A program made the translations under genes and the position numbers. The notes below the pieces were generated by a model. The model had not been told where the DNA came from, searched no databases, and worked only from the letters and a program-made list of their open reading frames with translations. A DNA stretch of 64,000 bases from Escherichia phage Phi1. Of this stretch, positions 44,405-46,759 are shown piece by piece. Each line of letters opens with the position of its first letter. The stretch's first letter is position 1. The DNA lies in the sequence record EF437941. The stretch is one strand, 5' to 3'.

Positions 44405-44624
44405 TTCTTTTATATGGTACTATAACAGGATTAATACAGCAAGCACCAATTACGTTATGAGCACCACAATTTAAACATTTATAGTCATGGAACTTATTAA
44501 GAAATCGACCAAACTCATAACCGACTAGCGCCGCATGTACTTGAGTCTCGATCTCATCCATATCAGCCAATGTTTTAACCTTCATAGTATAATCCTCAAA
44601 TGGTAGTTTTGCGAAGATGGTCAT
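44388..44624 (-). CDS. hypothetical protein
   Basis: 78-aa ORF. Confidence 0.45.
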   Translation of the reverse strand: MTIFAKLPFEDYTMKVKTLADMDEIETQVHAALVGYEFGRFLNKFHDYKCLNCGAHNVIGACCINPVIVPYKRNETEE

Positions 44625-44886
44625 TACATGCTTTTAATGCATCGGTCGCGGTGTCATAGCGAGTATTATCATAGCACCAATAACCATCTGTCAACTGATA
44701 AATTAATCCATCCTTTTTAGCTTCGATGAAAGACAACTCTTTGAAAGTTTCTACTTTCTTTGCTGATACTCCACGGTCACGGCGTTTATAGAGTTTAGCT
44801 AAAATGCGTTCAGCTTGTTCCTCTTTATCGCCAGACAGATCCCAGATGATGCTTCGGATATGCTTGATTAATTGTTCAGTGGTCAT
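44596..44886 (-). CDS. hypothetical protein
   Basis: 96-aa ORF with cassette RBS. Confidence 0.5.
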   Translation of the reverse strand: MTTEQLIKHIRSIIWDLSGDKEEQAERILAKLYKRRDRGVSAKKVETFKELSFIEAKKDGLIYQLTDGYWCYDNTRYDTATDALKACNDHLRKTTI

Positions 44887-44915: not shown

Positions 44916-44943
44916 ATTATAGCATTGTGATTATCTTTGTCAA
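44916..44943 (-). promoter_or_regulatory. early promoter
   Basis: TTGACA-N16-TATAAT. Confidence 0.5.
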
Positions 44944-44947
44944 CACC

Positions 44948-44981
44948 CAAAAAACAAAAAAGGCTATCCCGAAGGATAGCC
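44948..44981 (-). terminator. rho-independent terminator
   Basis: GGCTATCCTTCGGGATAGCC hairpin followed by T-run on minus strand. Confidence 0.6.
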
Positions 44982-44988
44982 CATAAAA

Positions 44989-45765
44989 TTACACGCGAGC
45001 ACCGTAGATCGTGCCTACTTTATCCCAACGAGGGGCATTACCAGTAACGGCTTTACCAGCAGCACCACCGTTATATTCTGTACCGTTACCCTGAGTATTA
45101 CATCTTCCTCCAGCAGCACCAACGTTACCTCCAGCACCGCCTGTATATGCACTAAGAGACCCCGAACCAACAGATCCTTTACCTGGAGCGGAAATGGAGC
45201 CAGCGGTTGCACCAGAACCCATATTAGAGGAAGACCCACCAGCACCGAATGGGCGACCACCGCCACCACCAAATACTAGTATACCCCTGTTACCGCCACC
45301 ACCACCGCCACCGCCGCCAACGATAGCACCGTTATTTGTAATTCGTAGACGTGTACCGATAGCGTTATTGATTGCGTTTCCACCAGCAGCGCCAGCAGCG
45401 TTACTACCACCATTACCCCCACGTCCGTAGACAGTCACACCGGAGTTAATGATCAATGTTACATATTCGTTTGTTAACGAGCTAGGGAAGTCAAGACAAG
45501 GAACGCCAGTAGAATGAGAAACAATATTACCAGTGATAGTAATTACTACCGGAGTAGATCCTTGTGCTTTCATCCAGTTAATAAGAGTGTCTTTATTGTA
45601 AGAGTTACTAGCACCAATGCTATAATGAATCTCTTTAGAGCGTCCGACCATTGCCGACATATACGCCGGACGACCTAAGCGTACAGCTTGCATTGCGGCG
45701 CTCATCCACCGTTGACCAGTCTCGGACACCGCAGATGATCCTACCCATCCAGAAGATATTGCCAT
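44989..45765 (-). CDS. glycine-rich protein (function unknown)
   Basis: 258 aa; globular N-terminal region then long Gly/Ala/Ser/Asn low-complexity region with G9 run; GAGGA RBS; own terminator. Confidence 0.6.
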   Translation of the reverse strand: MAISSGWVGSSAVSETGQRWMSAAMQAVRLGRPAYMSAMVGRSKEIHYSIGASNSYNKDTLINWMKAQGSTPVVITITGNIVSHSTGVPCLDFPSSLTNEYVTLIINSGVTVYGRGGNGGSNAAGAAGGNAINNAIGTRLRITNNGAIVGGGGGGGGGNRGILVFGGGGGRPFGAGGSSSNMGSGATAGSISAPGKGSVGSGSLSAYTGGAGGNVGAAGGRCNTQGNGTEYNGGAAGKAVTGNAPRWDKVGTIYGARV

Positions 45766-45819
45766 AAAATTTCCTCACAAGAAAAGCCCCAATTAAGGGG
45801 CATTGATTGATAATATTAC

Positions 45820-46041
45820 TTAGATGACCTCTGCTTCACCATCCAGGAAGAAAGACCATGTTTTGTTAGGATAGCGAAGCGCCCATGATTCAGCAGTTTT
45901 AACACCAGCTTCGAACAATTGACGGCTGGTTACTTTAGCCATACCATCTTCGATGGCAACGTTTTCAATAATCATCGGGTACTTAGCGCCACGCATGAAA
46001 CCGAAACCAGCGGAAGATTTGATAATTTTAACAGTTGCCAT
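45820..46041 (-). CDS. paralog family B protein
   Basis: MATVKIIKSSAGFGFMRGAKYPMIIENV...; internal ATG after GGAGAATCAAAA. Confidence 0.5.
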   Translation of the reverse strand: MATVKIIKSSAGFGFMRGAKYPMIIENVAIEDGMAKVTSRQLFEAGVKTAESWALRYPNKTWSFFLDGEAEVI

Positions 46042-46080
46042 TTTTGATTCTCCTAGAAAGTGTCGTGTTTCGATGGGTGT

Positions 46081-46110
46081 ATTATGCAATAACACCGGAA
46101 CGATGTCAAC
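46081..46110 (-). promoter_or_regulatory. early promoter
   Basis: TTGACA-N17-CATAAT. Confidence 0.5.
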
Positions 46111-46127
46111 ACTTTCTAAGAAAAATT

Positions 46128-46412
46128 TTAAATTAATCGAATATAGCCCAGAATTTCAGCACCTTTAGCTAGTCCTAAAACCTCCCATTCAAGGTCGCCG
46201 TAGTCATAATTTGCAACCATCAGTTCACCGTTTTTCATGCAGCAATCATGAGAGAAAATTTGCCCCGCATAAACTACGATAGTAATAAACTTTCCTGATT
46301 CTGGCGGTATGGAAGACAAAGCGACCATATGACCATTCAGCTTAGTCACCAGTGATGGAACAATAAAATTCGGGCTTACCTGAATACCGTTAAATTCGTT
46401 TGTGTCTTTCAT
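46128..46412 (-). CDS. hypothetical protein
   Basis: 94-aa ORF. Confidence 0.45.
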   Translation of the reverse strand: MKDTNEFNGIQVSPNFIVPSLVTKLNGHMVALSSIPPESGKFITIVVYAGQIFSHDCCMKNGELMVANYDYGDLEWEVLGLAKGAEILGYIRLI

Positions 46413-46759
46413 GCCAGACCTCGCAAAACACTAATAGCATAATCATGCTGGTTATTCATAATATCAATTGCATTGTGATAACGAGCTAAACCATCAAGGA
46501 TAAATTCTTGTTTATCCTGTTTCAGTTTGGTATCACGCGCAGCCATAAGAGCATCGAGAACAGGTCCAAAGTGATTATCTAATTCATCTTCGGTTGCAAT
46601 GTTTCCTATTGCATCGTCGATCCGTGATTCTAATGCTTGCTTTTCGTTGATCACTTGCTGGGTATATTCCAACACATCAAGAATATCGCGGGTAACGTCG
46701 CCATGATAAGGTATCCCCGCATGAAGATGATCAATTAATCGCTGAATATCAATGTTCAT
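46409..46759 (-). CDS. hypothetical protein
   Basis: 116-aa ORF. Confidence 0.5.
   Translation of the reverse strand: MNIDIQRLIDHLHAGIPYHGDVTRDILDVLEYTQQVINEKQALESRIDDAIGNIATEDELDNHFGPVLDALMAARDTKLKQDKQEFILDGLARYHNAIDIMNNQHDYAISVLRGLA

Follow-up and report, generated by a model that had tools for sequence, protein, structure and literature searches.

The open reading frame (ORF) at positions 44989-45765 on the minus strand of the analyzed window, a stretch of phage DNA of 64,000 nucleotides, is, with a probability of about 97%, gene 38 (g38) of an RB49-like coliphage (Krischvirus, Straboviridae), encoding the adhesin that sits as a monomer on the tip of each long tail fibre. Both the identity of gp38 and the displaced position of its gene are already known. 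Nothing argues against the assignment, which is carried by full-length profile matches, collinear structural homologs, a confident structure model and a pattern of sequence variation characteristic of the family.

Identification of the glycine-rich protein as gp38

Read directly from the window, the ORF comprises 258 codons from ATG to TAA. The initial annotation had reported a glycine-rich protein of 258 amino acids here without stating the strand; the ORF is real and lies on the minus strand. Composition counts agreed with its description of an ordered N-terminal part of some 110 residues followed by about 150 residues dominated by G, A, S and N and including a run of nine glycines: residues 1-110 are of ordinary composition (9% Gly), and residues 111-258 consist of Gly to 34% and of G/A/S/N to 64%, uninterrupted glycine stretches occurring at residues 150-158 (G9) and 166-170 (G5). 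It had also correctly discounted a collagen G-X-Y repeat, glycine counts of 21, 8 and 21 over the three phases showing no such periodicity.

Both Pfam profiles of the gp38 family were matched over their full length and above the curated cut-offs, namely Gp38_N (PF21721) by residues 1-40 (profile positions 1-40 of 40; E = 3.9e-18, 65.6 bits versus a cut-off of 25) and GP38 (PF05268) by residues 45-258 (profile positions 1-218 of 218; E = 1.8e-70, 237.6 bits versus a cut-off of 25). PHROG 2056, 'tail fiber protein; host specificity', matched at 6e-97. A sequence search of the PDB returned the gp38 chain from the gp37 tip complex of Salmonella phage S16 (6F45 chain D; E = 2.9e-50), collinear over residues 1-256, as well as the receptor-binding domain of PP01 gp38 (9V85; E = 1.2e-34). 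The initial annotation had named two findings that would overturn its reading, a match to a known structural protein and a different correct reading frame. The first of these was obtained, as the protein matches gp38 (6F45_D); the second was not, since the full-length matches to profiles and structures leave no doubt about the frame. Two other ORFs overlapping the gene, at 45194-45430 (plus strand, poly-Pro) and 45015-45272 (minus strand), were rejected as by-products of the GGN codon runs.

At the nucleotide level, g38 is 95-97% identical to its counterparts in RB49, JSE, ELT3, KFS-EC, Whisky49, Cognac49 and other Krischvirus genomes, with values of 96.8-97.4% for RB49 and ELT3; at the protein level, T6 gp38 is 55% identical to the window protein. 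The family is widespread, being present in 796 phage records according to tblastn, and every homolog listed in a metagenomic protein search carries both gp38 Pfam domains. Public annotation of the gene is inconsistent, ranging from 'hypothetical protein' to 'distal long tail fiber assembly catalyst', a name inherited from T4, and the ELT3 record (L004 1573-2277) starts g38 at an internal Met, giving a length of 705 nt versus 777. Coordinates of the gene, its domains and its flanking elements are collected in Table 1.

Table 1. Features of the g38 locus in window coordinates (GRM, glycine-rich motif; HVS, hypervariable segment; PeSL, promoter-early stem-loop)
Feature	Position	Strand	Basis or remark
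Strong intrinsic terminator after g38, stem-loop half of PeSL cassette	44950..44982	-	hairpin 44982-44961
Perfect sigma70 promoter TTGACA-16-TATAAT, promoter half of PeSL	44916..44943	-	corresponds to RB49 Pe:45336
Gene 38 CDS, 258-aa T2/T6/S16-type long-tail-fibre adhesin (receptor-recognising protein gp38)	44989..45765	-	Pfam, PHROG, PDB; stop included
N-terminal attachment domain, residues 1-40	45646..45765	-	Gp38_N match; model helices 8-16, 21-27, 36-39
Middle β-strand (β-helix) domain, residues 45-113	45427..45633	-	model strands
Predicted receptor-binding polyglycine-II sandwich domain, residues 114-242	45040..45426	-	conservation, model, 6f45_D superposition
GRM1 114-120, HVS1 121-149, GRM2 150-158, HVS2 159-165, GRM3 166-174	residues	-	conservation among 30 homologs
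HVS3 175-208, GRM4 209-219, HVS4 220-231, GRM5 232-242	residues	-	conservation among 30 homologs
Nine-glycine run, residues 150-158, assigned to GRM2	45292..45318	-	alignment
HVS4 loop, residues 220-231, with E230 and Y231	45073..45108	-	both residues kept in window protein
Ribosome-binding site (RBS) GAGGAAA, 4 nt before ATG	45770..45776	-	read from sequence
Short GC hairpin GCCCC-TTAATT-GGGGC followed by UUUUCUU, weak and terminator-like, no promoter after it	45786..45801	-	sequence
73-aa ORF (RB49p080 homolog), probably co-transcribed with g38	45820..46041	-	no Pfam match
Nearest upstream promoter, early-type sigma70 TTGACA-17-CATAAT	46081..46109	-	corresponds to RB49 Pe:46502

Probable receptor binding at the fibre tip

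For RB49, presence of gp38 at the fibre tip and its role in receptor binding are supported by spontaneous host-range mutants with changes only in gp38, either E230K alone or E230K together with Y231S (PMC9569957), and by the listing of RB49 as an OmpA-targeting phage (bioRxiv 10.64898/2026.04.02.716166). RB49-like phages recognise OmpA and certain O-antigens through gp38 (PMC9569957). Because the window protein shares 252 of its 258 residues with RB49 gp38 and retains both E230 and Y231, this allele most likely targets OmpA and O-antigen too.

The partner protein gp37 was analyzed in the RB49 reference genome, g37 being located outside the window. RB49 gp37 carries a Peptidase_S74 intramolecular chaperone domain at residues 871-930, and its C-terminal 299 amino acids matched the S16 gp37 chain 6f45_A (E = 3.9e-5). 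The full-length gp37 query had not matched this chain in the PDB, and the C-terminal part was needed to detect it. Both the chaperone domain and the C-terminal match to 6F45 fit the docking mechanism of S16, in which the N-terminal domain of gp38 docks on the gp37 fibre tip (Trojet 2011; Dunne 2018 as related in PMC12032242). Following that mechanism, the C-terminal intramolecular chaperone of gp37 would be cleaved off, whereupon the N-terminal domain of gp38 would dock on the tip of the gp37 trimer. The glycine-rich motifs would pack as a three-layer polyglycine-II sandwich, and the hypervariable loops, projecting from the distal face of this sandwich, would bind the receptor and thereby start adsorption.

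The assembly-catalyst product name, which the records of RB49, JSE and GEC-3S carry, implies a different role, namely that of a non-virion chaperone for tail-fibre assembly like T4 gp38. This name, however, was carried over from T4, and the T2/T6-type gp38 is a small adhesin unrelated to that of T4, which is the C-terminal domain of gp37 (Trojet 2011, PMC3157838). By its Pfam matches, in turn, the window protein falls among the adhesins, its structural match is to the tip complex of S16 gp37 and gp38, the RB49 host-range mutations map in gp38 itself (PMC9569957), and RB49 gp37 already has an intramolecular chaperone domain of its own. We therefore consider a chaperone function very improbable and retain the assignment as an adhesin.

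Displaced position of g38

In RB49, genes 34-37 occupy 145-154.7 kb on the plus strand, g37 ending at 154656, and g38 is found at 45367-46143 on the minus strand. There, the gene is flanked by the tk/rI block on one side and dam/nrdC/49 on the other, and small ORFs without an assigned function surround it. The synteny in which g38 directly follows g37, a typical but not a defining feature, is absent. The usual g38 slot is taken in RB49, because g37 is followed by the small ORF dc5 and then by the holin gene t. The dc5 ORF of RB49 (L002 14700-14939), located between g37 and t, is a 65/79-aa ORF without a Pfam match.

This arrangement has been described before. Gene 38 is kept apart from g37 in RB49-like phages (Trojet 2011, PMC3157838), it lies 'approximately 55 kb downstream of gp37' in five Krischvirus phages (bioRxiv 10.64898/2026.04.02.716166), and the same displacement is found in FL37 and FL38 (PMC12032242). 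The first 25 kb of the window were matched best by FL38, and both these 25 kb and the 12 kb around g38 are 96-98% identical to RB49, JSE, ELT3 and the other Krischvirus genomes named above, so that the window is a segment of an RB49-like Straboviridae genome. An early hyperplastic tk-dam location about 55 kb from genes 34-37 is thus the normal published arrangement for Krischvirus; the initial annotation, which had called the gene unusual among early genes, was right about the position, but this is already published for RB49-like phages.

Being located far from g37 among small early ORFs, and having no late promoter, the gene could also be seen as a displaced, redundant or decaying copy, with the working adhesin supplied by another gene. 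Yet the ORF is intact, and at least 52 Krischvirus records place it in this tk-dam region between the same neighbouring genes. Related genomes contain a single place matching g38, the slot beside g37 being filled by the 65/79-aa ORF only, and variation within the gene follows the functional pattern of glycine-rich motifs (GRMs) and hypervariable segments (HVSs). Moreover, the RB49 mutants selected for altered host range had changed only in g38 (PMC9569957). A redundant or decaying copy is hence extremely improbable, and g38 at its displaced position is best regarded as the functional adhesin gene.

Predicted fold and specificity domain

Structure prediction, which the initial annotation had proposed as a check, gave a confident model on which only gp38 structures superpose. 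The AlphaFold2 model, built on an alignment of 30 sequences, reached a mean pLDDT of 90.7 and a pTM of 0.83. In a Foldseek search of the PDB it superposed on 6f45_D (E = 1.6e-22, TM 0.84/0.87, rmsd 2.6 Å), followed by PP01 gp38 (9v85_C; E = 1.3e-19). Beyond these two, Foldseek found nothing better than E = 3 in the PDB, and the best β-helix enzyme, a pectate lyase, was non-significant (E = 5, TM 0.2).

Members of the gp38 family combine an N-terminal attachment domain with a β-helix domain and a three-layer polyglycine-II sandwich (Dunne 2018 as related in PMC12032242), and the predicted fold of the window protein has this S16-type three-domain architecture. Its middle domain is modelled with strands at residues 46-50, 53-56, 73-77, 81-83, 91-93, 102-106 and 111-113 (pLDDT 89-96). 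The glycine-rich part (about residues 114-242) contains almost no α or β structure by DSSP, yet shows pLDDT values of 86-98 in the AlphaFold2 model. High confidence without α/β structure is in keeping with an ordered core of the polyglycine-II type and not with a linker lacking order.

The specificity domain of gp38 is built from five GRMs and four HVSs (Trojet 2011, PMC3157838), and the C-terminal part of the window protein follows this design. We delimited the segments by conservation in an alignment of 30 homologs that are 44-97% identical, adopting the scheme of Trojet 2011, so that the boundaries given in Table 1 are approximate. The five motifs, GRGGNGG (114-120), G9 (150-158), GGGGGRPFG (166-174), GGxGGxVGxxG (209-219) and GGAAGxAVxG (232-242), are invariant or at least 90% conserved among these homologs, and the segments separating them are variable and bear indels. 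Within the nine-glycine run, G152-G155 never vary, and conservation reaches at least 90% at G150, G151, G156 and G157. On the model, the glycine runs are conserved motifs that build the predicted polyglycine-II sandwich, and the intervening segments are its putative hypervariable receptor-binding loops.

The initial annotation had likened the composition of the glycine-rich region to bacteriocin or colicin translocation regions or to β-helical, fibre-like domains. The relation to fibres held; the likeness to bacteriocins did not, and neither did a β-helix for the glycine-rich part, which in gp38 forms a polyglycine-II sandwich (Dunne 2018 as related in PMC12032242). A β-helix fibre was also rejected on the outcome of the sequence and fold searches of the PDB and of the Pfam search. 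The glycine-rich composition is what speaks for a bacteriocin- or colicin-like protein with a flexible translocation domain, an explanation whose probability is next to nil and which is refuted by Pfam, PDB, model and fold search, as no colicin or microcin appeared in the Pfam, PDB sequence or fold searches, the model predicts order in the glycine-rich part (pLDDT 86-98), and its Gly positions are conserved and stay in register from homolog to homolog, as would be expected of a structural core.

Allelic differences and modular variation

Relative to RB49 gp38, the window protein carries six changes: K4S, A5S, Q84H, A149V, R162I in HVS2 and E201S in HVS3. Judged from the sequence, R162I and E201S might shift host range relative to RB49. 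At codons 162 (45280-45282) and 201 (45163-45165), these two substitutions each remove a charge in a predicted receptor-binding loop. Val149 (A149V) and Ile162 are both absent from the four nearest database relatives.

A 2.3-kb alignment was made of the window with RB49, ELT3 and GEC-3S, the last being a less closely related Krischvirus. Compared with GEC-3S, nucleotide identity was 95-97% in the flanks, 98.1% in g38 codons 1-106 and 97.6% in the last 13 codons, but just 68.1%, with indels, in codons 107-245, divergence thus being confined to the part of the gene that encodes the specificity module. Across the family, the two halves of gp38 are uncoupled. The gp38 proteins of BF15 and Ac3 have T2-like N-terminal domains that are 43-45% identical to that of the window protein, together with a C-terminal module (residues 107-245) of 74-78% identity, and other gp38 proteins show the converse, with N-terminal domains 89-99% and C-terminal domains 53-60% identical. 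This uncoupling corresponds to the shuffling of specificity modules by recombination, which is already known, and the sharing with BF15 and Ac3 points to an exchange of the module between genera despite the differing locations of the gene.

Transcription of g38

Downstream of g38, the strong terminator reported by the initial annotation was borne out by the hairpin at 44982-44961, which has a 9-bp stem, a UUCG loop and a U-tract (dG -15.3 kcal/mol, z = -3.4). The promoter that it had attributed to g38 as its own cassette promoter, in turn, was misassigned: the promoter at 44943-44916 lies downstream of both the g38 stop codon and the terminator, drives the next ORF (44886-44596) and belongs to that gene. 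This 96-aa ORF (44596-44886, minus strand) has a sub-threshold Pfam match to Csm6_6H (E 0.009, 16.5 bits versus a cut-off of 27.6) that is probably due to chance.

PeSL cassettes consist of a GC-rich stem-loop to which a near-perfect sigma70 promoter is directly joined, and they lie on the early strand of a hyperplastic region (PMC4122927). The element at 44982-44916 is of this kind, with a stem and U-tract followed 17 nt later by TTGACA-16-TATAAT on the early strand, and it is not part of the regulation of g38 itself. Across the whole window, 35 sigma70 promoters agree with the consensus at 11 or more of 12 positions, and every one of them is on the minus strand; in 13 cases a stable hairpin precedes the promoter by no more than 50 nt, making the unit PeSL-like (for example 44982-44916, 47390-47323, 34103, 27016 and 22559).

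Upstream, the 54-nt spacer preceding g38 contains just a hairpin and the RBS, both invariant in the window, RB49, ELT3 and GEC-3S; the hairpin (45801-45786) is annotated as a terminator in GEC-3S. The nearest promoter, at 46109-46081, precedes the 73-aa ORF, which lies between it and g38. The GEC-3S annotation gives the same order of promoter, ORF, terminator, g38, terminator and promoter, and the predicted early promoters Pe:46502 and Pe:45336 bracket g38 likewise in RB49 (Nolan 2006 supplement).

A T4-type late promoter was defined as TATAAATA (or AATAAATA) shortly upstream of a gene or operon. RB49 g34 and g36 have the T4 late promoter TATAAATA 29-34 nt before their starts. For g38, no TATAAATA with up to one mismatch was present on the minus strand at 45766-46452, that is, in the 690 nt upstream of the gene, and inspection of the 54-nt intergenic leader by eye yielded at best candidates with at least three mismatches. 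The nearest exact TATAAATA is located at 48431-48424, before rI, and is separated from g38 by the strong PeSL terminator at 47390-47365. Consistently, a single late promoter, Pl:48756, was predicted in the first 64 kb of RB49, and none for g38 (Nolan 2006). A possible MotA box (TGCTG) found by eye inside the upstream ORF was discarded owing to its wrong core and 15-nt spacing. Occlusion of the RBS by RNA structure, on the model of the early/late switch of the T4 lysozyme type, was likewise rejected, as the fold of 45830-45736 did not exceed shuffled sequences in stability (z = -0.13); the RBS of g38 is not stably paired in the centroid structure of this segment. A literature search for Krischvirus transcriptome or expression studies returned nothing relevant.

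The plain reading of this layout is that g38 would be transcribed together with the 73-aa ORF from the early-type promoter at 46109-46081, by read-through of the weak hairpin at 45801-45786, with transcription ending at the strong terminator at 44982-44961. So read, the transcription of g38 would be a modest curiosity. A possible weak point of the read-through from an early promoter is that an adhesin is needed late, whereas the promoter is of the early type. More specifically, the displaced Krischvirus g38 may have lost late control and be expressed early via 46109-46081 and the leaky, conserved hairpin, or it may use an unrecognised type of promoter; we consider this possible but rather doubtful. 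If g38 were expressed early via the leaky hairpin, the receptor-binding tip would therefore be made minutes before the fibre it caps. Either early expression or an unrecognised promoter type would, if true, be a genuine if minor exception to the T4 rule by which virion genes are expressed late.

Significance and comparison with known systems

The main host-range determinant of most T-even-like phages is gp38, which is also an engineering target for therapeutic phages. The window copy itself adds nothing new in this respect: the allele differs by six residues from RB49 gp38, a protein whose use of receptors has been investigated by experiment, and crystal structures exist for the family. What is useful is an unambiguous annotation of the product as an adhesin, not as an 'assembly catalyst' or a 'hypothetical protein', along with a corrected regulatory reading in which the promoter belongs to the next gene. 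Two minor leads are the charge changes R162I and E201S in the receptor loops and the existence of a virion gene without a late promoter.

The closest known system is RB49. Its g38 (RB49p079, NP_891650) shares slot, strand, flanking hairpin, terminator and promoter with the window gene, and gp38 is likewise 258 amino acids long in RB49 and in other Krischvirus phages (JSE, phi1, ELT3, KFS-EC, Whisky49, Cognac49). The element following g38 is built in the same way as the PeSL cassettes described for RB49 and phi1 (Arbiol 2010, PMC2839356; Comeau 2014, PMC4122927). In contrast to these complete cassettes, only the stem-loop half, without a promoter, is found upstream of g38.

S16 gp38 (6F45 chain D; Dunne et al. 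2018) has the same three-part architecture and is 44% identical to the window protein in the structural alignment, but its hypervariable loops differ, as presumably does its receptor. The T2/T6-type gp38 proteins of Tequatrovirus and Mosigvirus (T6, PP01, Ac3, BF15) have the same Pfam domains and the same design of five GRMs and four HVSs, and the Ac3 and BF15 alleles have a set of HVSs in common with the window protein, their C-terminal domains being 74-78% identical to it. In contrast, the N-terminal domains of the Tequatrovirus and Mosigvirus proteins are just 43-47% identical to that of the window protein, and in these genera g38 directly follows g37 and precedes the holin gene, whereas the window g38 is found about 55 kb away on the early-gene strand.
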